Sequence record: NC_073053.1
Source: Escherichia phage vB_EcoD_Teewinot
Direction: 5' to 3' (one strand)
DNA length: 41,800 bases
Shown here: piece after piece, positions 3,600 to 40,381 of the stretch
How positions within the stretch are numbered: position 1 is the stretch's first letter
Layout: each line of letters begins with the position of its first letter
Position numbers and translations under genes: made by a program
Notes under the pieces: model-generated
The model's database searches: none
Told to the model about the DNA's origin: nothing
The model's input: only the letters and a program-made list of their open reading frames with translations

Positions 3600-4686
3600 T
3601 CAATATTTGGCGGATCGAATGATTCGCCGTCACATCTTCACCCAGCGCCTGAGCAATGATCAGGCGCGGAGGGTGCTGGCTATGTGGGAGAAGTTCCGGC
3701 CCACTTTACTTGGTAAGCTGACCGAGTTACTTGATGGCAAAAAGTCCATGAGCAACAAGGCACTTACCACACTGTTAACGCAACTCGACAAGACCGTCAA
3801 AACGGAACTGCGCGCCGAGTTTAAAGTGCTGGCGGAGAGCCTTCAGGAGTTCGCCGACACCGAGGCTGATTATCTCGCGGACACACTAACGGCAGCGATC
3901 CAGCCCGCTGTCGCCGTACCCGCTGTTGAAGTAGTTGGCGTTGTTACCGGCGCGCAGATTGCAGCGACGGCAATGAAAAACCCGTTCCAGGGTAATACTA
4001 TGATGCAATGGCCTGATTCCCTTTCCGAGTGGACCAGGACGCAGATCGGTAATCAGGTGCGCGCTGGCTTCATCCAGGGCAAGCCAACGATGGAAATTAT
4101 CGCGGACGTGAGGCGCGCGCTAGGCGGTCGTAGTGCGCAAGCCATCTCAAGCGTTGTTAAGTCCGCAGTAAACCACTATGCGGCGACTGCCCGCGAACTA
4201 ATGGTAAAAGCAAATGACGATATTCTCGAAGGTCGCCAATGGTTATCTACATTGGACACACATACTTCTCCCATGTGCCAGCTACGCGATCGCCTGTTTT
4301 ATCCGGTTGATGTTACTCCCGACACCAAAGGAAAGCGCGGCGGGAAAGTGGTGGCGGGGTCACAGTATGGCGCTGGCCCAGGCAAGCTGCATTATTGCTG
4401 CCGGTCAACGGAGACGTGGAAAGTCAAAGGCATGGAAGATTGGCCCAGTGGTAAGCGTCCGGCCCTGAAGGCTGACGCGGGTCGGTTGCTGAGTGAGCAG
4501 GTCGACGCGCAGACTGATTTCTTCTCCTGGGTGCAGCGCCAGCCGCGCCACATCCTGGAGGAATTATATGGGGTGCAGCGCGCGGACCAGATTATGCGCG
4601 GCGTGAAAGTGCCGAAGATGTTCACTGATACCGGCGAACTAATGACTGTTGCACAGCTTAAAAACCGGGGGTTATGGCGTGATTAA
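3583..4686 (+). CDS. head morphogenesis / minor head protein
   Basis: 367 aa ORF overlapping the portal stop; position typical of SPP1 gp7/Mu F-like head morphogenesis proteins. Confidence 0.55.
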   Translation: MAKTVNQYLADRMIRRHIFTQRLSNDQARRVLAMWEKFRPTLLGKLTELLDGKKSMSNKALTTLLTQLDKTVKTELRAEFKVLAESLQEFADTEADYLADTLTAAIQPAVAVPAVEVVGVVTGAQIAATAMKNPFQGNTMMQWPDSLSEWTRTQIGNQVRAGFIQGKPTMEIIADVRRALGGRSAQAISSVVKSAVNHYAATARELMVKANDDILEGRQWLSTLDTHTSPMCQLRDRLFYPVDVTPDTKGKRGGKVVAGSQYGAGPGKLHYCCRSTETWKVKGMEDWPSGKRPALKADAGRLLSEQVDAQTDFFSWVQRQPRHILEELYGVQRADQIMRGVKVPKMFTDTGELMTVAQLKNRGLWRD

Positions 4687-5008
4687 ATATGCAGCGATCG
4701 GGGTGGTTATCGGCCTGGCGGTTGGCTTCTGGCTGGGTGATTCCTACCGCGCTGGCGTTGTGGCGAGCGCGGCGCAAGAAGCGCAAGCGAAAGCCCGACG
4801 GCAGCAAACTAAGGTTGTCGAGGGGGCAGTGCAGGCAGAACAGGCCCGCGACGTAGAATACCGGACTATCACGAAAGAGGTTGTAAAATATGTTACGCGT
4901 CCTAACCGTCCTGATTGTAGTTTTGATGCTGAGCGCGTGCGGATCAAGCAACGTGCCGTTGATGCCGCTAACGGAGTCGGCACTGCGACCGCCGTGCAAG
5001 TTCGATAA
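4679..5008 (+). CDS. i-spanin (Rz-like), putative
   Basis: N-terminal TM helix (IKYAAIGVVIGLAVGFWLG) followed by A/Q/E/K/R-rich helical region. GTG 4679 preceded by GGGGGT; the track gives a TTG start at 4649. A lipoprotein ORF is embedded in the +1 frame over its 3' end. Confidence 0.5.
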   Translation: MIKYAAIGVVIGLAVGFWLGDSYRAGVVASAAQEAQAKARRQQTKVVEGAVQAEQARDVEYRTITKEVVKYVTRPNRPDCSFDAERVRIKQRAVDAANGVGTATAVQVR

Positions 5009-5120
5009 CCCGTCCGCGGACCCCGACGAAGATTTGATGATTGACGTGAAAAATATGGAATGCGGCGCGAAGCTAAGGGCGCAAGTGCTGGAGTTGCAGA
5101 AAATAATTCGGGGGCCGTGA
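4890..5120 (+). CDS. o-spanin (Rz1-like outer-membrane lipoprotein), putative
   Basis: Signal peptide with lipobox (VLMLSAC-GSS), proline-containing mature part with a Cys; embedded out of frame in the 3' end of the preceding TM protein gene; stop codon sits in the loop of a terminator. Confidence 0.55.
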   Translation: MLRVLTVLIVVLMLSACGSSNVPLMPLTESALRPPCKFDNPSADPDEDLMIDVKNMECGAKLRAQVLELQKIIRGP

Positions 5121-5134
5121 TGGCCCCTTTTGTT
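5111..5134 (+). terminator. rho-independent terminator
   Basis: GGGGCC-gtgat-GGCCCC followed by TTTTGTT. Confidence 0.6.
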
Positions 5135-5250
5135 AGCGTGGAATACCGCAGATTTCGAGAGTCCATCATGATTGATTTGGCTTCGGTCGCTATTTCGTGG
5201 TCGCGCAGGATGTTAGCCAGAATCTGGTTTTTAATGTCTTTCGTCAGTCT

Positions 5251-5311
5251 CATTAGTGTGTCCTCGTTGTTGGTGTGCAACCAATATATGCAACCAATAC
5301 GAGGATTGCAA
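5251..5311 (-). promoter_or_regulatory. leftward promoter-RBS-ATG cassette (duplicate of the cassette at 38308-38369)
   Basis: On the minus strand: -35 TTGCAA (5311-5306), 17-bp spacer, -10 TATATT (5288-5283), two ATTGGTTGCA copies, GAGGA RBS (5265-5261), ATG (5253-5251). The 28-nt stretch TATATTGGTTGCACACCAACAA(C)GAGGAC is shared with the promoter of the gene at 38367. Confidence 0.45.
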
Positions 5312-5318
5312 GCGAATT

Positions 5319-5346
5319 TTGCGATTATTTTTATCGCTGATAATAT
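5319..5346 (+). promoter_or_regulatory. sigma70-like promoter for the scaffold/capsid genes
   Basis: TTGCGA (5319-5324), 16-bp spacer, TAATAT (5341-5346). Confidence 0.3.
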
Positions 5347-5401
5347 TAGAAGCGTGAAGTCGAGCGGGTGGCCTGCTCTGCCACAATCCCAGGGGGATAG
5401 C

Positions 5402-6106
5402 ATGAAACTTACTAAAGCAGAATATGACGCGTTGCCGGAAGGTATGAAGGCGCTTTTTGTTGCCGATGGCGACGGGTATAAATCAACTTTCATGACCGCA
5501 GAAGAAGTACAGGCGGAAATCAAGGGTCTGAAAGAAAACAACGCGAAGCTGGTGAGCGAGAAGAAAGCAGAAGCCGAACGCCGCGCCGAAGCTGAGCGCC
5601 TTGCGAAAGAGAAAGAGGAAGCCGCCGCGCGCAAAAATGGCGACCTCGAAGCGATCGATAAGTCCTGGAAGGATAAGTTTGCGAAACACGAAGCAGATAC
5701 ATCGGGAAAAATCGAAGCCTACCGCAAGCAGATCCACGACCTAACCATCGGCAGCGCTGCCAAAGACCTGGCATCGAAGCTATTCGGTAAGAATGCGGGC
5801 ATCATGCAACGCCACGTAATGGACCGCCTGACGCTGGAAGACGGCGAAGATGGCAGCTTGAAAGTGCGTGTCTTGCAGGATGGCAAACCGTCCGCGCTGA
5901 CTATGGAAGAGCTTGAAAAAGAGTTCCGTAATAACGCCGATTTTGCATCCGTCCTGGCTGGCACGCCAGCCGGTGGCGCGCCTAGCAAACCGACGCAGGT
6001 TGTCGAAGATGTGAAGTCGAAAATCACTATGGGCCACAGCTTCGGTATCACTGACCTTACGAAACAGGCAGGTGAAATCATCGCTAAGATGGGCGACGAC
6101 GAGTAA
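5402..6106 (+). CDS. scaffolding protein (putative)
   Basis: ATG 5402 preceded by AGGGGGA; 234 aa, charged and helical (KEKEEAAARK-type coiled coil), immediately upstream of the major capsid gene. The track ORF start at 5060 is an upstream extension through the intergenic region. Confidence 0.6.
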   Translation: MKLTKAEYDALPEGMKALFVADGDGYKSTFMTAEEVQAEIKGLKENNAKLVSEKKAEAERRAEAERLAKEKEEAAARKNGDLEAIDKSWKDKFAKHEADTSGKIEAYRKQIHDLTIGSAAKDLASKLFGKNAGIMQRHVMDRLTLEDGEDGSLKVRVLQDGKPSALTMEELEKEFRNNADFASVLAGTPAGGAPSKPTQVVEDVKSKITMGHSFGITDLTKQAGEIIAKMGDDE

Positions 6107-6110
6107 GCAG

Positions 6111-6136
6111 ATTGCCCGCGAAAGCGGGCAATTTTG
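6111..6136 (+). terminator. terminator/attenuator between scaffold and capsid genes
   Basis: ATTGCCCGC-gaaa-GCGGGCAAT followed by TTTT. Confidence 0.45.
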
Positions 6137-6203
6137 CGAGCGCGTAAATCTAAGGTAACATTAACGTCACTGGGCGAATGCTCACAACTCAAAGGATTTC
6201 GAT

Positions 6204-7304
6204 ATGACTTTAACAGTGTTCCAGCGTAAACTCGTTACCGCGGTTACGCAAATGATCCCCGACAACCTGAACGTTTTCAACGCCGCCGCCAATGGCGCTG
6301 TTGTTCTCGGTACTGGTGAAGTGCTGAAGGATGTTATTGAGAAAATGTCCGTAGGCTTGATCGCCAACCTCGTTACCGACCGTAACGCCTACGCCCCTGT
6401 CGGTACTCCGGCAACCGCTAAAGTGCTGGCGCGTATGCTGACCAACTCCGTTAACCTATCCGCGAAAGTGGGTCCGGTAGCGATCACTAAGGCTATGATG
6501 GCTAAGATCGAAACCAACGTTAACAGCGTTGCGGCTGAGATTGCGGCGCAGGCCACTCAAGCGATTATGCTGCACTACCTGAAAGCGGGTATCGGTGCGG
6601 GTAAAGCGGCGATCGAAAGCAACGAAGCGGCAAAATACACCCAACCGGCGCGCGTTGACGGCGTTGGCGGTCGTACCTTCCCGACCCTGGCAGACTTCCC
6701 GCTGGCGGCTTCTAAGTTCGGCGATCAGGCGTCTTTGATTAAGTCCTGGTTTATGGACGGCGTTACCTGGGCAAACTTCATCGCGTACCAGGCACTCCCT
6801 TCCGCTGAACAGGTATTCGCAATTGGCGATCTCCAGGTAATGGGTGATGGCCTGGGCCGTCGTTTCATTATCTCCGATGCCGCTGCCGATGCTATGGGCA
6901 CGGGTAACATGCTGGGTCTGGTCCCTGGCGCGGTTGCCGTTACCACCAACGGCCTCGATATGCTGGCGCAGGAGAAAGGCGGTAACGAGAACATCGAACG
7001 CTGGTGGCAGGGTGAGTTCGACTTCAACGTGGCTGTTAAAGGCTACCGTCTGAAGGCGTCCGCTCGTACCCCGATCGAAGGTGTGCGCTCGTTCAAACTG
7101 GACGATATTACCACTTCCGCTAACTGGGAATTGGATCAGGGCCAGGTAGACAACGCACCGGCAACCGTTCAGGATGTTGGCGCGGTGGGTGATGTCGATA
7201 CTAAAGGTCGTCGTAAGACCCAGGCCGCACAGGCAGTGCCTACCCGTCACATCAAGGAAACCGCTGGCGTACTGGTTACGCTGACGGCGACCACAGCGTC
7301 TTAA
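6204..7304 (+). CDS. major capsid protein
   Basis: 366 aa ORF after the scaffold gene with AAGGA RBS, followed by a strong terminator; position and size typical of an HK97-fold capsid protein. Confidence 0.8.
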   Translation: MTLTVFQRKLVTAVTQMIPDNLNVFNAAANGAVVLGTGEVLKDVIEKMSVGLIANLVTDRNAYAPVGTPATAKVLARMLTNSVNLSAKVGPVAITKAMMAKIETNVNSVAAEIAAQATQAIMLHYLKAGIGAGKAAIESNEAAKYTQPARVDGVGGRTFPTLADFPLAASKFGDQASLIKSWFMDGVTWANFIAYQALPSAEQVFAIGDLQVMGDGLGRRFIISDAAADAMGTGNMLGLVPGAVAVTTNGLDMLAQEKGGNENIERWWQGEFDFNVAVKGYRLKASARTPIEGVRSFKLDDITTSANWELDQGQVDNAPATVQDVGAVGDVDTKGRRKTQAAQAVPTRHIKETAGVLVTLTATTAS

Positions 7305-10992: not shown

Positions 10993-11135
10993 TGAAGCGG
11001 GACAGGCGGGACGTCCCGTTTTGTCCCGCCTCTGTAAAACTGCATATCTACTCACTTCCACTGCATAAACTCAAAACGGGACAAGCGGGACGTCCCGCTT
11101 TGTCCCGCCCTGTAAATGTGCATACCTATGCAGTT
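10993..11135. repeat. pair of 30-bp GGGAC palindromes with TGCATA-containing spacers
   Basis: Two near-identical imperfect palindromes CGGGACAAGCGGGACGTCCCGCTTTGTCCCGCC around 11003-11040 and 11084-11120, each centred on GGGACGTCCC, separated by CTGTAAA(N)TGCATA-type repeats. Confidence 0.7.
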
Positions 11136-11139
11136 TTAT

Positions 11140-11313
11140 TGCATAAAGTAAGCGGGACAAAAAGCGGGACAAACAAGGGGCGGGACAAAGCGGGACAGCA
11201 CCCCGTCCCCGCCAGTGCTGCCGCGGTTTTCAGCCGATCGGGACAGCGGGACAGCACCCCAGTCTTTCAGACTAGACGGGGGTCAATGGCCCCCCTCGTC
11301 TGAGACTGAATAA
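11140..11313. repeat. 174-bp GCGGGACA-array element, copy A
   Basis: Four tandem GCGGGACA units spaced about one helical turn apart, a variable centre, two more GGGACAG units, then a long imperfect hairpin (AGACGGGGG...CCCCCCTCGTCT). Near-identical copy at 37996-38169. Confidence 0.8.
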
Positions 11314-11376: not shown

Positions 11377-14019
11377 ATGGCAGGTCAGGCAGCAGGCATC
11401 ACGCTAAAGGCTGATGTTGCACAAATCAGAACGGCAAATACTGTGCTGGACTCCTTCGCACAGAAATCCGAGAACACAGAAAACAAGGTTAAGAAATTAA
11501 ACGACACCCTCGGCAAATCCAAAAAGGTGACGAGTGACGCCGCGGGCGGAATGGAAAAGCTGGCAAACGAATCGCAGCGCGCCGCCGATGGCATGACGAA
11601 ACAGGAGCGACTCGCCAACAGGTTAGGCATGTCGACTAAAAACTTGGGCTTTGCCTCGCGTAACGCCGCATTCCAGTTACAGGATATCGCAGTTACGCTT
11701 GAGATGGGGATGCCGGTACACCGCGTTATGCTTCAGCAGTTACCGCAGCTAACTGGGGCGTTCGGTGGATTGGGTAACACTCTGCGTTATGTTGCTGGCT
11801 TCCTCGGTCCAGTTGGGATCGGCCTTGCTGCGGTAACGGCAACGTTAGGCGTGGGCGTAGCAATTACGTCCCGCGCAGAGAACCAGGTCGCAGCGCTTAA
11901 CAAGACGCTGGCGCTGTCAGGTAACATTTCCGGCCTAACGGCAAACCAGATCCTGGTGCTATCCGAGAACGCCGAGCGCATGGGCGGGTCGTTCCGCAAG
12001 ACGCGTGACACAATCCAGGCGCTGGCGGCGGCGGGTGTGAAAGCGGGGGCGGACTTCGGCCCGCTGGCGAAGGTTGTGAATGACTTCGCGAAGGCGTCTA
12101 ATCAGCCGATCCCTGACGTGGTTGAATCCATCTCAAAATTGTCGAACGACCCAGTGGGCGGACTGCGTGCGCTGGCGGATAAGTATCATGTCGTTACCGA
12201 GGCGCAGATCCAGCAGGTGCAATCGCTTGTAGATATGGGGCGTGAAACGGACGCGGTTGCTCTGGCTAACAAAACAGCCGCTGCGTCGTTCTCCAGCATG
12301 ACCGATGAGGTAAAGTCCAACATGGGTACGCTTGAGCGGTCGATGAACGTAGTTACATCGGCAGCTAAATCTATGTGGGATGCCATCCTGGATGTGGGCC
12401 GCGCGCAGTCCTCGAATGAGTCCGAGATGAAAGCGCGTGAGTCCTTGCAGCGCATGACCACGGCGTACTATGCCGAGATGAGGGCGGTAAACGCTGCCGG
12501 TGGGGTAATGACCGAAGCGCAGAAAGCGCGTATTAACATGCTTTACAGCGAACTGGTCGCCCAGGAAAAGGTAGTAGCGTCGCTCACCCTTCGCAACCGT
12601 GCCGAGCGAGACAGCGCCAGCGCCGCGGATGAAGCAGCAAAGGCGAACGAGGAGGCAAACCGCGCCGCCCGCGACCGCTCCGCGTTTGAGAAGGAGTACG
12701 CAACCAACGCGAAGCGGCGAGCCGACGAGATCGCCCGCCTAAATTTGCTGAATAAGCGCGGTGTTATTAACGAGAAAGAACTAGCCGAGGCGGTGAAGCA
12801 GGTCAACGAGCGTTACAAAGACCCCGCGCCGAAGAAAGCGGAGGCAGTTCGAGTCGATGCCGGGCTGAAAATGCTGGAAGTCGCGCGAAGCGAATTAGCC
12901 CAGCTTCGTGAGTCTGGAAAGCAGATCGAAGCCAACGCATCGACGCAGACCCGCACGCAACGCGCGCAAGCGTCCCTGAACAAGCTGATTGCCGATAATG
13001 AGCAGTTAATCACCGCGAGCAAGGAGCGCGCACTCACGGCAGCAGAAAAGCAGCAAACGGCGGCGTTCGAGGCGGTTAAATCGGTACGCGAGCAGATCGT
13101 CGAAGAAGCCAAATTGCTGGACGCGAAAGAGAAGCAGATCAAAGCACACGCCCAGGTCGATGCATTCATCAAGAACCAGAACGCCGAGCTAAAAGCCACC
13201 GCGGCGGGATATGCGCTTTCCACTCGCGAAGCGGCTAACCTGCGCGAAGAATTGCAGCTAATTGATCGCCTGAAGCGGGTGGGCGCTAACGATACCGATA
13301 TTGATCTGGCGGTGTCTAAGCTGCGCGAAGTGCAGGAAGCACAGACCGGTGCTAACGCCTCGCTATGGGATGGCTTCAGCCGCGGGCTTAAGGATAGTGT
13401 TGATGAAATGGGTAACGGCTATACGCAGATGACGTCACTCACAAAATTCACGTTCGGCGCTATGCAGGACACGATGAACGAGTTTTTCGAGACTGGCAAG
13501 CTGAACGCAAAAGATATGGTTAAGTCCATTCTGAGCGAATTAATAAAGCTGGCTACCTCGCAGGCGTTCAAGTCCATCGTTAGCGCTTTCGGCGGTGACG
13601 GCGGCAAAAACGGATTGTTCGGCGCTATTTTCTCCGGCCTCACTAAGAATGCGGACGGCGGAGCGTACGCAGGGGGCAACCTCGCGGCCTATTCGGGGCA
13701 AGTGGTAAGCCAGCCCACCTTTTTCAGTTATGGCGTCCAGGCGTTCGCTAAGGGCGCAGGATTGATGGGGGAGGCTGGCCCCGAGGCCATCATGCCGCTT
13801 AAGCGCGGGCCAGACGGTAAACTTGGCGTTGCCGCGGCAGGCGGTGTCGGGGGAATGATTGTAACGACCAACGTTAACATGGGGACCGGTAAGACGGATA
13901 CCAGTGTTAGCGGTCCAGACCCGCGCACCGCGCAGGCGTTCGGAAAGCAAATCACCGAGTCGGTCAAGGCCGAGATCGTGAAGGCGACGAAACCGGGTGG
14001 TGTACTTTACAAACGATGA
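11377..14019 (+). CDS. tail tape measure protein
   Basis: 880 aa, long helical A/Q/K/E-rich protein with glycine-rich C-terminal part, AAGGGGA RBS; located after the G/GT chaperone and before the tail tip genes. Confidence 0.85.
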   Translation: MAGQAAGITLKADVAQIRTANTVLDSFAQKSENTENKVKKLNDTLGKSKKVTSDAAGGMEKLANESQRAADGMTKQERLANRLGMSTKNLGFASRNAAFQLQDIAVTLEMGMPVHRVMLQQLPQLTGAFGGLGNTLRYVAGFLGPVGIGLAAVTATLGVGVAITSRAENQVAALNKTLALSGNISGLTANQILVLSENAERMGGSFRKTRDTIQALAAAGVKAGADFGPLAKVVNDFAKASNQPIPDVVESISKLSNDPVGGLRALADKYHVVTEAQIQQVQSLVDMGRETDAVALANKTAAASFSSMTDEVKSNMGTLERSMNVVTSAAKSMWDAILDVGRAQSSNESEMKARESLQRMTTAYYAEMRAVNAAGGVMTEAQKARINMLYSELVAQEKVVASLTLRNRAERDSASAADEAAKANEEANRAARDRSAFEKEYATNAKRRADEIARLNLLNKRGVINEKELAEAVKQVNERYKDPAPKKAEAVRVDAGLKMLEVARSELAQLRESGKQIEANASTQTRTQRAQASLNKLIADNEQLITASKERALTAAEKQQTAAFEAVKSVREQIVEEAKLLDAKEKQIKAHAQVDAFIKNQNAELKATAAGYALSTREAANLREELQLIDRLKRVGANDTDIDLAVSKLREVQEAQTGANASLWDGFSRGLKDSVDEMGNGYTQMTSLTKFTFGAMQDTMNEFFETGKLNAKDMVKSILSELIKLATSQAFKSIVSAFGGDGGKNGLFGAIFSGLTKNADGGAYAGGNLAAYSGQVVSQPTFFSYGVQAFAKGAGLMGEAGPEAIMPLKRGPDGKLGVAAAGGVGGMIVTTNVNMGTGKTDTSVSGPDPRTAQAFGKQITESVKAEIVKATKPGGVLYKR

Positions 14020-23496: not shown

Positions 23497-23518
23497 TGCA
23501 ACCAACCTATTGGTTGCA
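23497..23518. promoter_or_regulatory. perfect inverted repeat of the ATTGGTTGCA motif (operator-like)
   Basis: TGCAACCAA-ccta-TTGGTTGCA; the TAG stop of the HAD gene lies in the 4-bp spacer. Confidence 0.5.
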
Positions 23519-25401: not shown

Positions 25402-25725
25402 TTACGCATAAAAGTTTGGGTCGCGTGCAACGTCTACCAGGTAAAGGTTGCTTATGCGGTTGCCGTAGTGCCCTGGAGTGCGCTGGCGGCACACAACGGC
25501 GAAGCCTGGAGGGATTGTATTGCCCGTCTCAATAATCCATGCCACGCGTGCGCCAGACAGCGTCTTGCCGTTGCATTCGATGCGTGTCCCACCATCGGCA
25601 GTATTGATGTTGCCAATCTTGCATCCGGTGGACTTCAGACGGATGACTCCGGTTTTGCTGTCGTAGGTGAATAGCTGGTTAGTCATTGCGACCGAAAAAT
25701 CGATTGGTTCGTATGTAGCGTTCAT
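25402..25725 (-). CDS. HNH_3-like protein with degenerate catalytic motif
   Basis: 107 aa; ARVAWIIETGNTIPPGFAVVCRQRTPGHYGNRISNLYLV aligns by eye to the HRLVWE...G.IP.G..IDHINGD..DNR..NL pattern of HNH_3 homing endonucleases, but the DH of IDH is replaced by VC. Confidence 0.45.
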   Translation of the reverse strand: MNATYEPIDFSVAMTNQLFTYDSKTGVIRLKSTGCKIGNINTADGGTRIECNGKTLSGARVAWIIETGNTIPPGFAVVCRQRTPGHYGNRISNLYLVDVARDPNFYA

Positions 25726-25907
25726 TTTAAATTTTCCTCGTTAACCGCTATCGCGAAGCCGCGCGGAGTGAGCGACCGGATTAATTTTGTGCGGGCTGAT
25801 TTACCACCGAGGCGACTATACTGTTTCGAGTACCCTTTTTCAACGAAAACAGGTTTCTTCTCTGGCATACGGAAGCCGCTGCCGTCAAACAATGGCCAGA
25901 TTATCAT
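25722..25907 (-). CDS. hypothetical protein
   Basis: 61 aa ORF tightly packed between helicase and HNH-like gene with overlapping start/stop codons. Confidence 0.35.
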   Translation of the reverse strand: MIIWPLFDGSGFRMPEKKPVFVEKGYSKQYSRLGGKSARTKLIRSLTPRGFAIAVNEENLK

Positions 25908-28007: not shown

Positions 28008-28606
28008 TGTCGGCTTTTCCTTACGGCAGCGATGGCAGGTCCGATAAACTTCTTCATTTCGTCCGGGGTAAACCGGTCTCCGCGGGCTATGTTGCACTCT
28101 ACGCAGCACGGCACGCAGTTATCTTTCGTATGGCCTACTGCGTTGTCGAGTCGGTCCGCGCCATTGTCGCCGGTGAATCCGCAGTATGCGCATGGTTGAG
28201 AAGTAAGGCGTAGCACGTCCTCGGTGGTTAGGTCGGTGTTTAACCCCTTCCTTTCGTCCGCCTTACGGTACTGAAAGAGCTTATAGTAAGCTCGGATCTC
28301 TGGTGTCCGGCGGTTGTACTCACGGCGGGACTTATTAGCGCACGACCGGCATTCTTTACGAATGTGTGACTGGCTTGCCAGGTTTCCGGGCCGGAAGTTT
28401 TCCGGCGTAAGCGGCTTACGTTCCCCGCACTGACGGCACGTTACGATCTCCCCGGTATACTCTCGCCATACTTCGCGCGGCGGCGCTCCTCTTTCCTTAT
28501 CTCGTCTCTCTTTCTTATACGCCGCCATGCATTTGGCGCACCACGACTGACCCTTGTTGAAAGCGGACTCATCTTTATCCGTATTACAACGCCCACAATG
28601 TTTCAT
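28004..28606 (-). CDS. HNH endonuclease with two N-terminal zinc-ribbon modules
   Basis: 200 aa from ATG 28606 (GGGGGGT RBS); C-terminal CAYCG...GHTKDNCVPCCVECNIARGD HNH motif; inserted between the polymerase and VRR-NUC genes. Confidence 0.65.
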   Translation of the reverse strand: MKHCGRCNTDKDESAFNKGQSWCAKCMAAYKKERRDKERGAPPREVWREYTGEIVTCRQCGERKPLTPENFRPGNLASQSHIRKECRSCANKSRREYNRRTPEIRAYYKLFQYRKADERKGLNTDLTTEDVLRLTSQPCAYCGFTGDNGADRLDNAVGHTKDNCVPCCVECNIARGDRFTPDEMKKFIGPAIAAVRKSRQ

Positions 28607-28673
28607 ATACCCCCCCGAAAAATAAAACGCCAGACAATATTGCCCGACGTTTCCGCTAAAAGCAACATTTCCG

Positions 28674-30965
28674 CTACTTGCGGTAGCGATACATACAATC
28701 ACCTTCTGCGGCAAGTGGGAAGCCTTTCGCCCAAATAGGCAGGTCGCACATCAGCGCGCAAAGCTCCTCTGTCGTGTAGTCGTCGGTGTCCGGCACTTCT
28801 GTGATCAATTCATCATGCACCGATAGAACGATTTCATATCCGGCGGCTTCAACGCCAGGCATGGACCACGCGAGAATATCGCGGCACAACGCCTGTACGA
28901 TGTTCTCCGTCAGTTTGCCGCCGTAGGTATACTGGAAGCCCCACTGGCGCGTCGTCTGATTCTCGCCCTGATATTTAATGCGTGTGCTGGTGCGCTTCTT
29001 GCCGGTGTCCTCGTCGATCTCGGTCGTGACCGACAGCGCGATGCCCGGGTAGCTCATGATGCGCCCGGACGGCAACTCAATTTTCAACCACCACCCCGCG
29101 GCGTTCGGATCGTCGCGCTCCTCGTCGAAGGTTGGGTCGTGCTTCGCCTTCGTGCGCACAATCTTGAGCGCTTTCCTACCGTCCGGGCGAACGTTAGCGC
29201 CAGCCCAGTATGCTTTGCCCGGATTGCGGATTGCACACAACACCGCGTCCTCAAGCTCGGCCCAAAAGGCGACCGTCTTCGGGTGAGCCTCGCGCCACAT
29301 GCGTTTGATTGCGTCACAAGTCAGCCATACGTTTTTCGGAAGTATGTATGTTGGGCGCTCGTCTTTCTTGCCTGGCTTCGGTGGGCGTTTCGCTTCGTTA
29401 ATACGAGCGTACTCATAACCGCGTTTAGCTGCCGCCCAAATGTGATCGGGGAATGTACCCTTCATCACGTCCGCCATAGCGTAAAGGTCGAGGCCCAGGT
29501 TTTTAGCGAACTGCAAGAACGCCGCGACGCCGCCACCATAGCCCAGTCCCAATTCACACGCCTTACCGATCTGGCGCAAGTCTTTGCGGTTGGCTTTAAT
29601 GTAGTCCGGGTCCAGGCCGAACATCTTACCGGCAGTCTCACAATAGATATCGCGACCGGCCCTAAACACCATTAGCGCGGTTTTCTCGCCCGCGATCCAG
29701 GCAAGTCCACGCCCTTCCACGTTGGAGTAGTCCGCTACGACAAACTTCTTGCCCTTAGCCGGGATAATGCACCCGCGAACGGTAGAGGCTGTTAGCTTAG
29801 ATATGTCATACGCCCAGTGCGCGGTCCCGCGTAACAGGGAATTGATGCCGTTGGTGAGCATGTGCGACCGGACCCAAAACGAGACGTCGCTTTCACCCTC
29901 GCGGCGTTTAATCTTCCCTTCGTGGTCGTCGCTGTACTCGCCACGTGCCAGGTTTTGAGGCTGGAAGCCTTTACCCGCCCAGCGCAGCGTGCGCTTTGCG
30001 CCACCATACTGAAGACACCCACGGCGGCGACCATCTGCGGATAAGCCGTTAACTAGCGGATTGTACTTAGTCGATGCCGTTGATGACGCACCGAGGCGCA
30101 TTTCGATAAGCGCTTTGCCTTCGTCGGGGAAGTCCGGGTCTTCAAGCAGGTCGTTAAGTGTGGATTTCTGCGCGTTGTGGATTGTGAACGCCGGGGCGAT
30201 ATCACGCAGGATTGGCAGGAAGTCATTGCCTGTCAGTTTACCACCAAATCGCTCCCAGGCTTCCTCCTTCAATTCTTCCTTATGCGCCTGCACCGCTTTG
30301 ATCGCGGCGTTCGCCAGGTCAACGTCCACATAGAAGCCGCGGTCGTTGATCAACTGGTCGATAAGCAGGATTTCATCTTCCTTCGGAGTATTACCCCAGT
30401 CCGGTATGCGCCAGTAGACCTCACGCATCGCGATAATATCCAGCGCGGCATATCGCAAAAATTTGGCCCATTCTTCAGGGTGAGTCTCGCGAGTGTAGCG
30501 GCGGATTTTGTAAGTCTTAGGGGTTGGCTTACAGAAGCGTTTGATCAGCGCCTTGCCAGCCTTATCCTTCGCGTGTTCTGCGTCAACGCCCAGCACCTGG
30601 CATTGCATGTCGAGACTACCGGGCAGCGCGTGGCGAAAGGCCATAATCATGGTGTCTTCGATCTGGCTTACCGGCAGGTCAATACCCCACTTCTCGCGAA
30701 TAACCAGGCGGTCAAACAGGAGGCCGTTAGCCATCACTATTTTTGCTTTCTTGCGGGAAACATGGCGGAGCGCCTTGCGCAGTTCACGCGGCATTGTGGG
30801 GGATTCAGTGCAATCCCATGTCTGCACGCGGCCCTCGTCGATGGCGTATGTGCAAATCATAATCTCGGTGGTTGGGTGCTCTGCGTAGGCGTACGCCCCA
30901 ACTTTCTTCAGGTCCACCCCGCTAAATGTCTCGGTGTCGAGAAACAGACGTTCGAAGTCTTTCAT
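28674..30965 (-). CDS. DNA polymerase, family A, with 3'-5' exonuclease domain
   Basis: 763 aa; N-terminal LFLDTETFSG (exo motif I-like), C-terminal SVHDELITEV (motif C) and K...YG region; GAGGATAAAG RBS. Confidence 0.85.
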   Translation of the reverse strand: MKDFERLFLDTETFSGVDLKKVGAYAYAEHPTTEIMICTYAIDEGRVQTWDCTESPTMPRELRKALRHVSRKKAKIVMANGLLFDRLVIREKWGIDLPVSQIEDTMIMAFRHALPGSLDMQCQVLGVDAEHAKDKAGKALIKRFCKPTPKTYKIRRYTRETHPEEWAKFLRYAALDIIAMREVYWRIPDWGNTPKEDEILLIDQLINDRGFYVDVDLANAAIKAVQAHKEELKEEAWERFGGKLTGNDFLPILRDIAPAFTIHNAQKSTLNDLLEDPDFPDEGKALIEMRLGASSTASTKYNPLVNGLSADGRRRGCLQYGGAKRTLRWAGKGFQPQNLARGEYSDDHEGKIKRREGESDVSFWVRSHMLTNGINSLLRGTAHWAYDISKLTASTVRGCIIPAKGKKFVVADYSNVEGRGLAWIAGEKTALMVFRAGRDIYCETAGKMFGLDPDYIKANRKDLRQIGKACELGLGYGGGVAAFLQFAKNLGLDLYAMADVMKGTFPDHIWAAAKRGYEYARINEAKRPPKPGKKDERPTYILPKNVWLTCDAIKRMWREAHPKTVAFWAELEDAVLCAIRNPGKAYWAGANVRPDGRKALKIVRTKAKHDPTFDEERDDPNAAGWWLKIELPSGRIMSYPGIALSVTTEIDEDTGKKRTSTRIKYQGENQTTRQWGFQYTYGGKLTENIVQALCRDILAWSMPGVEAAGYEIVLSVHDELITEVPDTDDYTTEELCALMCDLPIWAKGFPLAAEGDCMYRYRK

Positions 30966-35043: not shown

Positions 35044-35373
35044 ATGAATATCAAAGAAGCAATTGAAGTGTTATCTAATGCAATCCGCGGCGAAGCGGGT
35101 AAATCCTGGTATTACACAAATGCGGTGGATACTCTGTTATTTGAAGTGTCCAGATTATCGCGTGCTGAGAAGGAGCTTACCGCGAAGCTGGAATTGCTCA
35201 ACGGCACGGCAGCAAGCAAGCTGCAAAAGCACAATGAAGAAATGGAAGAATACAAAAAACAGGTTATCCGTTTGCGCGCCGAGGGCAAATCCTGGGCGAT
35301 GATTGCCGAGTTGACCGGAATTAATCAGAGCACAGTGCGCTCCTGGGTACGCAATAATAAAACTTCTAAGTAA
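35044..35373 (+). CDS. HTH DNA-binding regulator
   Basis: 109 aa; C-terminal GKSWAMIAELTGINQSTVRSWV is a typical helix-turn-helix; first gene of the rightward operon. Confidence 0.65.
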   Translation: MNIKEAIEVLSNAIRGEAGKSWYYTNAVDTLLFEVSRLSRAEKELTAKLELLNGTAASKLQKHNEEMEEYKKQVIRLRAEGKSWAMIAELTGINQSTVRSWVRNNKTSK

Positions 35374-35383
35374 GGCCACGGCA

Positions 35384-37648
35384 ATGAACTTAATTAAATT
35401 CGCTGTAACACGACCCGCTAAAAAAGGCGAAAAAGCCAGGGCGGAAAACTTCCAGATGACCACCGATGAGTTTTTCGAATTTATTAATGATGCGAAAGAA
35501 ATATCCTCGGTGCATATCAACAAGACGGAAGATAAAGCGGAGTATGCGCGCCGCAAGCGTAAGGCTGATGGTATTGTGGCTTATACCCGTGACGGCTTAC
35601 GCCGCAAGACCAGTGCCGTGGACCGCTCGATCCTGTTCTTCGATATCGACCGTACCGACACCCGCACCCTGCGCCGCTGCCGTAAGGCTTTCATCGACGC
35701 GGGGCTGGAGCACGTATTTCACACCACAACCGGCGACCGCCACCCGCTGAAAGGCGGCACGCGTTGCGCTCGATTCCTGGTACTCACGGACAAGCCTGTA
35801 CCGGCTGAAGACCTGGGCCGTGTCCAGTATGCGCTATTACACCAACTGGGTCTGTCAGATGTGGACTTCGACGATTGCACGAAAGACACAAACCGCCTGA
35901 TGTACCTGCCACACCAGCAGTCTGTCGTTAAGTGCCACTACGGCAAGCGCGCCCGCGTCCGTCGTCTGCTCCGCCTGGCTGACAAGCTGGGAGTCGAGAA
36001 AGAGGAAGTACGCCGCGAACTGACCCAGGGCGATGATGGTGTGGCGGACGGTATTCTGGATTGGTGCTTCCAGGCGGGATTCGAACCGCTGTCGTCTGGT
36101 CGTGGTTATGAAGTGCCATGCCCGAACGAACACCTGCACAGCGGCGAAGGGTCCACCGCTATCTTGGTTAAGGATGGCGAGATCCGTTTCAAGTGTATGC
36201 ACACCGGCAACGAGTGTTGCTCGGAGCTGAACAGACACCAGCACCTGGCGCTACGTCTTATCGGGATCCCGGACCACCTGAACGTCGAGCCACACAACAT
36301 GTCCCGTAAGCAAATCGCCGCCATCCTCCCCGGACTGGACGACGAGGAAGTGGAATCGTGCTATGAACATATCGTTGATGCGGTCGGAGACGGCGACGAG
36401 TACGGCGTGTGTACTGATGCAGACCTGGACAACGAGCCGGTCGCACTGTTCAGTAAGCACGACCCGATCATCGAAGGCCTGGTCAACTTCAAATCGACCT
36501 GGTATCTCGCCGGTGAGTCGAACATCGGTAAATCGTTCTACGTGCTGGGGCAAATGGGTGCGGTTGCCGCGGGGATTCCGTTCGGCGGTGCGAAGGTCGT
36601 CCAGTCCCATTGCTTCTATTTCGACGCGGAAGGTGGCGAAGCCTCCAACCAGCGTAAGGAAGCATTGCAGATCAAATACGAGCACGACCTCGACAAGCTG
36701 CACATTATCGATCTGCAATCACGCGGCTGGGATATCACCAGCAAATCCGGCTTGCGTGAAGTTATCAGCTTCATCAACCGCACCGCTAACGGCGAACCGG
36801 TTGGCCTGGTGGCGTTCGACTCACTCAACCAGACGGTTGCGCTGCGGTCCGCCGATGCTAAACCGTTCGACGAGAACAACGCCAGCGATATGGGTGAAGT
36901 GGTCAAAGCGCTGAAGGCCATCGCGGAAAATACAGGCGGCAGTGCTGGCGTCATCCACCACCCGGCGAAGGGTGCAAACGGCAGCAGATCCCCCCGCGGG
37001 TCCGGCGCGCTGCATGGTGCTGTAGATTCCGCGTTCTTCCTGGAGCAACCGGACGACAATCAGCCCGGACAACTTAACCTGTATCACGAGAAGGCACGTA
37101 ACGGCATCAAGCAAGCGCCGCGCGGCTTCGTCCTGCTCAAGTGCAAGGTTAAGGTGGATCTCCGCAAGTCCGAGGCGTTCGAGGCGCACCAGTCCACCAG
37201 CACCGGGCCAGACTTCGGCGACGTGGTTGCCGGATGGGACGTCAAGCCGATTGCCTCCACGCCACGCGACGAGACTCTCTACCTCGTACCGGTCGCCCTG
37301 GCACCGTTCGCTATAGAACAGGCGAAGGCGGCTGGCAAGGCCGCGGTTAAGGACGAGAATGCCGCAGGACCGCGCAACGAAAAAGAGAAAGTGCTTTATG
37401 CGGCACTGGAAAAACTGATGGAAGATAACCCGGACCATACCGGATTCAGCAAATCGGCAATTGTCCGCCAGGCGGGATTGGCAAAAGGTGGAACATCTAC
37501 GAAGGCAATAGACGATATGGTTGAGCGCGGAGTGTTAGGTTTTTATACCGATCCGCACACCGGGGCCATCTATGGGTCGTCGAATATAGTCATCAAAACG
37601 AATATACCCATCACGCTTTCTGCGACCGATGACGACCTGAAAGATTAA
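35384..37648 (+). CDS. primase-helicase (AEP-type primase domain plus P-loop ATPase)
   Basis: 754 aa; N-terminal SILFFDIDRTD (hhhDhD primase-polymerase motif) and DDCTKDTNRLMYLP, a Cys/His zinc-binding segment, then Walker A GESNIGKS. Confidence 0.7.
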   Translation: MNLIKFAVTRPAKKGEKARAENFQMTTDEFFEFINDAKEISSVHINKTEDKAEYARRKRKADGIVAYTRDGLRRKTSAVDRSILFFDIDRTDTRTLRRCRKAFIDAGLEHVFHTTTGDRHPLKGGTRCARFLVLTDKPVPAEDLGRVQYALLHQLGLSDVDFDDCTKDTNRLMYLPHQQSVVKCHYGKRARVRRLLRLADKLGVEKEEVRRELTQGDDGVADGILDWCFQAGFEPLSSGRGYEVPCPNEHLHSGEGSTAILVKDGEIRFKCMHTGNECCSELNRHQHLALRLIGIPDHLNVEPHNMSRKQIAAILPGLDDEEVESCYEHIVDAVGDGDEYGVCTDADLDNEPVALFSKHDPIIEGLVNFKSTWYLAGESNIGKSFYVLGQMGAVAAGIPFGGAKVVQSHCFYFDAEGGEASNQRKEALQIKYEHDLDKLHIIDLQSRGWDITSKSGLREVISFINRTANGEPVGLVAFDSLNQTVALRSADAKPFDENNASDMGEVVKALKAIAENTGGSAGVIHHPAKGANGSRSPRGSGALHGAVDSAFFLEQPDDNQPGQLNLYHEKARNGIKQAPRGFVLLKCKVKVDLRKSEAFEAHQSTSTGPDFGDVVAGWDVKPIASTPRDETLYLVPVALAPFAIEQAKAAGKAAVKDENAAGPRNEKEKVLYAALEKLMEDNPDHTGFSKSAIVRQAGLAKGGTSTKAIDDMVERGVLGFYTDPHTGAIYGSSNIVIKTNIPITLSATDDDLKD

Positions 37649-37960
37649 ATTTTGCGCGCATTGGGAATTCCCATATCGCTAAAGATTAAATTTTGCGCGC
37701 ATTGGTTGCCATTTTGGGAATTCCCATATCGCTAAAGATTAAATTTTGCGCGCATTGGTTGCCGATATGGGAATTCCCATATCGCTAAAGATTAAATTTT
37801 GCGCGCATTGGTTGCCATTTTGGGAATTCCCATATCGCTAAAGATTAAATTTTGCGCGTATTGGTTGCCATTTTGGGAATTCCCATATCGCTAAAGATTA
37901 AATTTTGCGCGTATTGGTTGCCATTTTGGGTGTTTTTAACTGGTCGTATTGGTTGCCGTG
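37640..37960. repeat. iteron array, about six tandem 53-bp repeats (candidate origin of replication)
   Basis: Unit AAAGATTAAATTTTGCGCGCATTGGTTGCCATTTTGGGAATTCCCATATCGCT at 37681, 37734, 37787, 37840, a 41-bp first copy at 37640 (12-bp deletion) and a degenerate sixth; each has the palindrome TGGGAATTCCCA, extended to GATATGGGAATTCCCATATC in the third copy. Starts in the last codons of the primase-helicase gene. Confidence 0.75.
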
Positions 37961-37995
37961 TAGGGTGATTATTATGAATAGTTATGCAATAAAAC

Positions 37996-38169
37996 TGCAT
38001 AAAGTAAGCGGGACAAAAAGCGGGACAAACAAGGGGCGGGACAAAGCGGGACAGCACCCCCGTCCCGCCCCGGATGGCGCGGCTTTCAGAGGAGCGGGAC
38101 AGCGGGACAGCACCCCAGTCTTTCAGACTAGACGGGGGTCAGTGGCCCCCCTCGTCTGAGACTGAATAA
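37996..38169. repeat. 174-bp GCGGGACA-array element, copy B
   Basis: Same length as copy A (11140-11313); identical over the first 60-odd bp and the last 70-odd bp except one A/G difference, with a diverged roughly 40-bp centre. Confidence 0.8.
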
Positions 38170-38307: not shown

Positions 38308-38336
38308 TTGCATTCGTGCCAGCACCCTGCTATATT
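38308..38336 (+). promoter_or_regulatory. sigma70-like promoter built from two ATTGGTTGCA copies
   Basis: TTGCAT (38308-38313, from motif copy 1), 17-bp spacer, TATATT (38331-38336), then motif copy 2 (38334-38343), GAGGA RBS and ATG 38367. Confidence 0.45.
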
Positions 38337-38366
38337 GGTTGCACACCAACAAGAGGACTGCACAAA

Positions 38367-38708
38367 ATGAAATTTCCAGTAACTATCACCGGCAACGACC
38401 ACGGCACTTACGAGAGTACCAAAATGAAAGCATTAATCTGGAATTACACAATGGCGATGGCAAAGCTGAACGAAGCGAAAGCGCTGAACGGCAACATCGA
38501 CCGCGCGGCACATATCGTAATACTGGCACAGCAGGCAATCATGTGCGCGCTCGACGGCATGGATGAACTGGCGAAGGCAATTCACGAATACGCGCAGGCA
38601 TTCTCCCGTGAGCGCCTGGCATATCGCTTCGGGATCGGCGAGACGGCAGTGACAAACGTCGCCCGGATTAAAGCCCAGCGCGAACTATTCGCCCAGCTTG
38701 CGAAATAA
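38367..38708 (+). CDS. hypothetical protein
   Basis: 113 aa from ATG 38367 (GAGGA RBS); the track start at 38304 lies inside the promoter. Confidence 0.55.
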   Translation: MKFPVTITGNDHGTYESTKMKALIWNYTMAMAKLNEAKALNGNIDRAAHIVILAQQAIMCALDGMDELAKAIHEYAQAFSRERLAYRFGIGETAVTNVARIKAQRELFAQLAK

Positions 38709-39903: not shown

Positions 39904-40381
39904 CAACGGTCTACGATTTACGGCAGCATGGGAGACTTTCAGCCCAGTGCCGTATTTCGCGACTAAGAAAGAGCAGGCCCGCGGCCTGTACACCTGGGGT
40001 TATGGTCATACCGGCACTAACCCGCCTCGAAGCATTACCCGCGCGGAAGCGCTGGAGCTACTCAAGCGCGATGTGGCGTATGCTGAGGACCGGGTGAACA
40101 AATACGCACATCCGAGCATTAACCAGGCGCAATTCGACGCGCTGGTGGACCTGGTGATCAATGCTGGTCCCGGTCCGATCGTACCGGACGACGTAGCCGG
40201 TGACTTCGATGATGCGGTGCGACTGGGTGACTGGGCGAAGGTCCGTGCTACTCTGCCGCAGTTCCGCAAGCAAGGTGGGGAGGTGCTTAAGGGTCTGGTC
40301 CGTCGAGCAATCGGCAGGCAAGCGCTATTCGATGGAAAGCAGTGGGACGTTGCCGAGAAAATCGGTCGTAACGCAGCATAA
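39890..40381 (+). CDS. endolysin, GH24 lysozyme type
   Basis: 163 aa; recalled P22-type lysozyme landmarks match: SDNGL near the N-terminus, catalytic E (WETF), YTWGYGHTG, INQAQFDALVDLVINAG, C-terminal RRAIGRQALF. Confidence 0.8.
   Translation: MRFSDNGLRFTAAWETFSPVPYFATKKEQARGLYTWGYGHTGTNPPRSITRAEALELLKRDVAYAEDRVNKYAHPSINQAQFDALVDLVINAGPGPIVPDDVAGDFDDAVRLGDWAKVRATLPQFRKQGGEVLKGLVRRAIGRQALFDGKQWDVAEKIGRNAA

Follow-up and report, generated by a model that had tools for sequence, protein, structure and literature searches.

The question raised by this locus is what purpose a well-formed promoter, ribosome-binding site (RBS), and start codon would serve where they face, from the minus strand, the o-spanin and i-spanin genes of Escherichia phage vB_EcoD_Teewinot. 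A sequence-only reading had noted that the promoter-RBS unit occurs a second time in this genome and that its ATG opens a long frame antisense to both spanin genes, and had proposed either a short protein overlapping the spanins or an antisense RNA that could time lysis. We propose instead, with a probability of about 0.9, that the site comprises the intact promoter, leader, RBS, and first 35 codons of nmad5, a gene lost by a 644-bp deletion, and that the remnant is functionless.

End-to-end alignment with Escherichia phage Pubbukkers revealed that the window, i.e., the whole 41.8-kb stretch of DNA analyzed here, is a complete Dhillonvirus genome, circularly permuted by 54 nt, with a GC content of 54.5%. 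Identity per aligned block ranged from 83.6 to 100% and was mostly 90 to 97%, while more than 120 Dhillonvirus records matched the nmad5 region at 94 to 99.5% identity. At 41.8 kb, the window is somewhat smaller than the 43 to 46 kb quoted for Dhillonvirus genomes. The spanins of these phages have been placed in the overlapped "Jersey" family (PMC6139136). The features discussed below are collected in Table 1.

Table 1. Coordinates of features at the nmad5 locus, the adjoining spanin genes, and the second cassette
Feature	Position	Strand	Basis or remark
i-spanin gene	4649-5008	+	Start possibly ~4689 instead, as in Bas84 annotation
Fortuitous frame after the frameshift	4744-5132	-	Antisense to o-/i-spanin; non-coding by codon score
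o-spanin gene, overlapped Rz1-type	4890-5120	+	100% identical to Pubbukkers gp6
Bidirectional intrinsic-terminator hairpin	5110-5128		Flagged on both strands; o-spanin stop (5118-5120) in loop
nmad5 3' remnant, last 16 nt	5133-5148	-	Native TAA (5135-5133) out of frame; aligned to Pubbukkers, SECphi18, and SM_S24
Deletion junction, single CAGATTTCG copy	5149-5157		Base-by-base comparison with intact relative
nmad5 5' remnant, start codon and 35 native codons, MRLTKDIKNQILANILRDHEIATEAKSIMMDSRNL	5149-5253	-	Identical to Pubbukkers residues 1-35
Shared 29-nt block, TATATTGGTTGCACACCAACAACGAGGAC	5260-5288	-	-10, predicted start region, leader, and Shine-Dalgarno GAGGA
Two TATTGGTTGCA copies, 13 nt apart	5276-5299	-	Downstream copy overlaps -10/start region; upstream copy in promoter spacer
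-10-like hexamer TATATT	5283-5288	-	Promoter scan; first 6 nt of shared block; identical at site 2
-35-like hexamer TTGCAA of nmad5 promoter	5306-5311	-	Promoter scan; kept in relatives
Second cassette copy	38308-38358	+	TTGCAT 38308-38313, 17 nt, TATATT 38331-38336, block to GAGGAC 38353-38358
phrog_9839-family gene	38367-38708	+	Family found in Dhillonvirus only

The duplication described for 5251-5290 and for the DNA ahead of the gene at 38367 is real. The window contains exactly two occurrences of TATATTGGTTGCACACCAACAA, one on the minus strand (5267-5288; site 1) and one on the plus strand (38331-38352; site 2), and none of 100 dinucleotide-preserving shuffles contained a 22-nt exact repeat. 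At both sites TATATTGGTTGCACACCAACAA is followed by (C)GAGGAC and then, 6 or 8 nt on, by ATG (5253-5251 on the minus strand and 38367-38369 on the plus strand); the block with its ATG spans 5251-5288 (-) and 38331-38369 (+), with 22 nt exact and 28 to 29 nt alike when one indel is allowed. The Shine-Dalgarno sequence GAGGA lies 6 nt ahead of ATG 5253. The only sigma-70-like hit of the promoter scan in this region was TTGCAA-17 nt-TATATT, with 9 of 12 matches, and its TATATT is the -10 that the sequence-only reading had put at 5283-5288. The counterpart at site 2, TTGCAT-17-TATATT, scored 8 of 12, slightly below the threshold of the scan. Hence both sites present -35/-10-like hexamers at a spacing of 17 nt, within the 16 to 18 nt expected for sigma-70. 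At site 2, relatives keep both hexamers (with TAGATT in some) and the block that follows, whereas the 17-nt spacer is different in every genome, the pattern expected of a sigma-70 promoter; at site 1 all positions are too conserved to inform this comparison.

The likeness between the two sites consists of the 28- to 29-nt block and an additional, differently spaced copy of TATTGGTTGCA, which argues for a short functional element and against a recent segmental duplication. Upstream of the slot gene, the block is kept in all relatives examined, whatever the cargo. The conservation of the cassette at both sites throughout the genus makes it a plausible sigma-70-type promoter, leader, and RBS heading two accessory-gene slots, in keeping with the earlier view of a promoter-RBS unit; a search of the literature for Dhillonvirus promoters or transcriptomes returned nothing relevant. 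Two further candidate elements were rejected. A tandem promoter further downstream, with TTGCAC as the -35, was dismissed because the candidate -10 varies between the sites and among relatives, and a leader RNA hairpin, UUGGU-N5-ACCAA, would probably be untranscribed if transcription starts about 7 nt past TATATT and was taken as an inverted repeat at the DNA level.

The identity of the gene served by this cassette became evident from the relatives. In all top relatives, the same interval measures about 1745 bp, compared to 1101 bp in the window, and is annotated with a leftward 765-bp gene between the o-spanin and scaffold genes; its 254-aa product is labelled "nucleotide modification associated protein" or Nmad5 (Pfam PF18757). 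Pairwise alignment with an intact relative gave two blocks overlapping by 9 nt, with the window minus 644 bp, and the 644 bp are bracketed in the intact gene by a 9-bp direct repeat, CAGATTTCG (L001 2050-2058 and 2694-2702), a single copy of which marks the junction in the window. Loss between short direct repeats is a typical signature of slipped mispairing or illegitimate recombination. The deletion removed codons 36 to about 250 of nmad5, and since 644 is not divisible by 3, it shifted the reading frame and left the native TAA out of frame. Judged by its equivalence to the start in these relatives, ATG 5253 is the true start codon of nmad5.

Profile searches gave a consistent picture. The window open reading frame matched the Pfam Nmad5 profile PF18757 with 33.9 bits (cut-off, 27; E value, 4e-8) over profile positions 1 to 40 only, compared to the full 1 to 206 for the SECphi18 homolog (E value, 1e-57); the locus thus shows a significant family match and Dhillonvirus synteny but no full-length domain (1 to 206). 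By these measures we classify it as a pseudogene remnant of nmad5 and not as a functional member of the family. What is shared with the intact genes (SECphi18 gp24, YP_010844185; Bas84_0007; PhiSMS22 CDS6) is the locus, strand, promoter and RBS, start codon, 35 residues, and terminator; unlike them, the window retains profile positions 1 to 40 of 206, the rest having gone with the 644-bp frameshifting deletion. The flanks of the deletion are 99.3 to 100% identical to Pubbukkers, indicating that the deletion is recent, and for that reason the intactness of the promoter is uninformative on any function of the remnant. The exact junction had no match elsewhere, whether its 31-mer was sought in IMG/VR and metagenome contigs or by blastn against INPHARED, and the allele therefore rests on a single assembly. 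The accessory gene was already known, and its natural deletion allele described here is new.

Some records begin nmad5 further upstream, at a TTG or another start, adding 80 to 127 aa to the N-terminus (Pubbukkers 5079-6224; PhiSMS22, PMC11846954), and these extended models overlap the scaffold gene as well as the region of the divergent promoter. Because the Pfam profile starts at the ATG equivalent to 5253, with the conserved RBS before it, the 254-aa model is probably correct.

We then considered the open frame itself. From ATG 5253, the minus-strand frame is indeed open for 169 codons, to the stop at 4746-4744, antisense to o-spanin and i-spanin. Its coding potential was scored by a codon log-likelihood test trained on the genes of this genome versus their antisense frames. 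Codons 1 to 35 scored +0.52 bits/codon, compared to +0.35 ± 0.18 for genes in 35-codon windows. The remaining 134 codons, 36 to 169, scored -0.50 bits/codon, which is close to the antisense value of -0.48 and about 9 SD under real genes (+0.375 ± 0.095 in 134-codon windows). In relatives the same frame is broken by internal stops in five of eight cases, and about 40 other stop-free stretches of at least 134 codons lie outside annotated gene frames in this genome. The frameshift gave rise to the long antisense frame incidentally, and the tail of that frame is non-coding. The frame enters the terminator hairpin at codon 43 and reads through it as KGAITAP. The sequence-only reading had judged the first ~44 codons to be protein-like; the N-terminal part is indeed gene-like, whereas the true boundary, given alike by the codon score and the junction, falls at codon 35, the figure of ~44 corresponding to the codons ahead of the hairpin.

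The hairpin is common to the rightward packaging/head-spanin genes and the leftward nmad5, and it is kept in relatives. Its predicted energy is -14.6 kcal/mol on the plus strand and -13.4 kcal/mol on the minus strand, with a U-tract that is clean on the plus strand (CUUUUGUU) and interrupted on the minus strand (CGAAUUAUUUUCU). Each strand therefore carries the GC-rich hairpin and U-tract of a bidirectional terminator, with an uncertain efficiency on the minus strand, where the interruption makes some read-through into the DNA antisense to the spanins plausible. From these elements the fate of the remnant can be sketched. Host sigma-70 RNA polymerase would still initiate from TTGCAA-17-TATATT, near 5276, and yield a remnant RNA of about 178 nt, mostly ending at the hairpin near 5100. 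An RNA ending at ~5100 would overlap the 3' end of o-spanin by at most ~22 nt and would contain no in-frame stop. Ribosomes stalled at the 3' end of a stopless mRNA are rescued by tmRNA; on such a non-stop message, ribosomes would be expected to reach the 3' end and the peptide to be handled by this rescue.

The proposal that RNA from this promoter reads through the hairpin, pairs with o-/i-spanin mRNA, and tunes the timing of lysis draws on a plausible promoter facing the spanin genes, on the imperfect U-tract of the minus strand, and on the shortened distance between promoter and spanin 3' end, about 150 nt after the deletion as against about 800 nt in relatives. We nevertheless hold it to be highly unlikely. 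A recent deletion in a single genome produced this arrangement, which is not conserved, and in all relatives that promoter serves a protein gene; a conserved GC-rich hairpin stands between the promoter and the spanins; and the overlap of the terminated RNA, about 22 nt, is far from the o-spanin start. An Rfam scan of 4600-5450 gave one sub-threshold chance hit and no match to an RNA family. Neither substantial complementarity to a target mRNA, usually around its 5' end or RBS, nor conservation as an RNA gene, as would characterize a regulatory cis-antisense RNA, was found here. Moreover, transcription converging on the spanins is ancestral, being the layout of every relative with an intact gene, and any antisense effect would accordingly be neither new nor designed. 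Phage lambda offers a partial parallel, its oop RNA being antisense to the 3' end of cII. Like oop, the predicted RNA is short and leftward, runs toward the 3' end of a gene transcribed to the right, and stops at a hairpin; it differs in that its promoter belongs to a protein-coding gene in all relatives, the short RNA is a by-product of deletion, and nothing is conserved at the RNA level.

A new short protein with a function, made of 35 Nmad5 residues and a frameshifted tail (169 aa in all, or about 50 aa to the transcript end), would have a good Shine-Dalgarno GAGGA 6 nt before its ATG and an open frame to read. Such a product seems to us extremely improbable given that the codons of the tail are of the antisense type, the frame is unconserved, the Pfam match is limited to the truncated Nmad5 N-terminus, and the allele is unique to this genome, with a transcript that probably ends before any in-frame stop. 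Both proposals of the sequence-only reading thus give way to a simpler one, in which the cassette is the native expression signal of nmad5. It might also be argued that the phage carries an intact nmad5 and that the gap reflects mis-assembly or a deletion sub-population, as the junction is seen in no other sequence and the genome falls below 43 to 46 kb. To this we assign a minimal probability: a 9-bp repeat is far too short for collapse in a modern assembly, the loss of 510 bp from dcm by a deletion of the same kind, along with other length differences, fits a truly reduced genome, and SM_S24 is itself a natural nmad5 deletion.

The position occupied by the nmad5 remnant is an accessory slot across the genus. 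Nmad5 was present at 60% identity or higher in about 148 Dhillonvirus records, with at least 80% coverage in 147, and the same cassette precedes an intact gene for the 254-aa protein in four metagenomic Dhillonvirus contigs. In SO-1, EP23-like contigs, and about 16 other records, the slot holds an alternative cargo, a DnaN/RusA-like protein of 172 aa (519-bp gene; phrog_3007), and the cassette ahead of it is identical. The GC contents of the two cargoes are 52% and 47%, compared to about 55% in the flanks. Morons of lambdoid and HK97-like phages are reportedly units of promoter, gene, and terminator inserted among late genes. The nmad5 slot shows their hallmarks, namely its own predicted promoter and terminator, variable cargo, and deviating composition, and it appears to be a moron-like accessory cassette, leftward and self-contained, with its own promoter, gene, and shared bidirectional terminator. 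Like morons, it is a self-contained opposite-strand unit in a late gene block, with cargo that varies among close relatives and a lower GC content; unlike them, it resides in phages described as lytic, so that the classic context of prophage expression is inapplicable, and its promoter and terminator are predicted here. The SO-1 record carries the annotation "possible moron gene product."

An independent deletion within nmad5 is found in SM_S24 (PP920554, CDS 5019-5573), a phage from the same laboratory collection as that of Yamashita et al. 2025. As in the window, the promoter, 5' end, and terminator are kept; the downstream breakpoint lies about 4 nt from that of the window, and the same shifted frame runs through the hairpin (KGAITAP). 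The upstream breakpoint differs, however, so that about 170 native residues are kept in SM_S24 and TAA comes right after the hairpin, whereas the window keeps 35 residues and has no stop for a further 127 codons past the hairpin peptide. Viable deletions are probably restricted to the nmad5 interior, because the gene is flanked by the divergent scaffold promoter region and by the shared terminator.

Yamashita et al. 2025 (PMC11846954) reported that a K-to-E substitution in a Dhillonvirus nmad5 led to escape from the Tmn defense system, that cloning of nmad5 was impossible owing to apparent toxicity, and that a synthetic nmad5-deletion Dhillonvirus could be built and plated and stayed Tmn-sensitive. 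The alleles of that study are K-to-E point mutants and an engineered deletion, whereas that of the window is a natural deletion. Since the published deletion phage is viable, natural loss is consistent with nmad5 being dispensable, and the natural knock-out in the window, together with the SM_S24 truncation, supports the published dispensability in Dhillonvirus.

A second deletion was noted in the gene of a C5-cytosine DNA methylase (dcm; 25725-25903, minus strand), which carries an in-frame internal deletion of 510 bp with its junction at about 25878-25887, between the near-identical 10-bp direct repeats GCCGCTGCCG and GCCGTTGCCG. The remnant is about 66 aa long and keeps only residues 181 to 236 of the 236-aa protein. 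This junction was found in no other deposited phage; PS2 and Bas84 have different length variants there. The genome has thus lost two DNA-modification genes through the same mechanism, and its nmad5/dcm-deleted genotype provides natural material on the role of Nmad5 and its relation to defense systems such as Tmn. Two other length differences were observed. Compared to Pubbukkers, the DNA polymerase gene is missing, at about 29546-29557 of the window, an insert of some 900 bp (an intein or an intron with an HNH gene, according to the annotation), and an extra segment of about 690 bp (28008-28699) lies between the resolvase-like and polymerase genes, at the position of the SO-1 HNH gene gp37. 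The nmad5 locus also carries a caution for the interpretation of phage genomes, in that the stump of a deleted gene can present itself as a well-formed expression signal (promoter, RBS, and ATG) ahead of a long antisense frame.

The second block copy (38331) is equally conserved in the genus and heads another variable region, the first gene of which belongs to phrog_9839. In the window this gene starts 19 codons, in frame, ahead of the usual start MKALIWNY at 38424, which adds MKFPVTITGNDHGTYESTK (38367-38423) to the N-terminus, and some metagenomic homologs have longer extensions, with 158 to 159 aa and the same beginning. AlphaFold2 predicted four long helices packed as a bundle (pLDDT, 86), for which no PDB structure match at an E value of 0.001 or below and no PDB sequence match was found. 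The C-terminal LAYRFGIGETAVTNVARI had suggested a helix-turn-helix (HTH) autoregulator binding the shared block; this idea was abandoned, as the Pfam matches were far below threshold and the model has no HTH fold.

A shorter motif is embedded in the cassette. The window contains 16 copies of its core, ATTGGTTGC, where 0.54 would be expected, and 15 of the 16 are non-coding; the loci are syntenic in Pubbukkers, SM_S24, and SO-1, with 12 to 14 copies each. At three places TTGC(A/T)x of the motif coincides with a -35 hexamer that is followed, after 17 nt, by a -10-like hexamer, and at two places the motif lies in the promoter spacer, adjoining the -10. From this placement, ATTGGTTGC(A) is probably an extended -35 element or the binding site of a regulator. 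A sigma-54/NtrC-type reading of the TGG/TTGCA motif was set aside, its spacing being unsuitable as judged by eye. The two accessory expression slots and the genus-wide promoter-associated motif could guide the choice of promoters and insertion sites in therapeutic Dhillonvirus engineering.

Five small early proteins were screened for a candidate regulator, and a single clear DNA-binding candidate emerged, a 109-aa protein (35044-35373, plus strand) whose C-terminus scored above the Pfam cut-offs for HTH_23, Sigma70_r4_2, and HTH_28. It is encoded by a genus-specific core gene, confined to Dhillonvirus and first in the rightward early operon, and public records label it resolvase, transposase, or "nuclease inhibitor gamma." One could imagine that this sigma-region-4-like protein recognizes ATTGGTTGC(A) and switches the accessory (DNA-modification/anti-defense) genes and possibly the replication origin; the 28-nt block would then be its operator, and the orphaned operator-promoter at the nmad5 locus would act as a decoy or as a source of read-through antisense RNA. 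We regard this scheme as speculative and unlikely.

Several other repeats were observed. A near-perfect palindrome, GCAACCAA-CCTA-TTGGTTGC, formed by an inverted pair of the promoter-associated motif and resembling a dimeric operator, lies at 23498-23517 between two leftward early genes. Six 53-bp tandem repeats (37608-37983), situated directly downstream of the primase/helicase gene, hold six of the ATTGGTTGC copies and, in most copies, ATTGGTTGCC and the palindrome GGGAATTCCC; the array is the counterpart of "region B" in the annotation of Sodalis phage SO-1 and may serve as an origin or in regulation. Upstream of site 2, an iteron cluster contains four to six copies of GCGGGACA (38001-38120). 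The iteron segment resembles an intergenic stretch in the tail-gene region (11127-11313) and matches SO-1 "region A" and "region B." The resemblance is crosswise between genomes, with window positions 37996-38169 resembling Pubbukkers 11609-11782 and window positions 11127-11313 resembling Pubbukkers 40076-40263.
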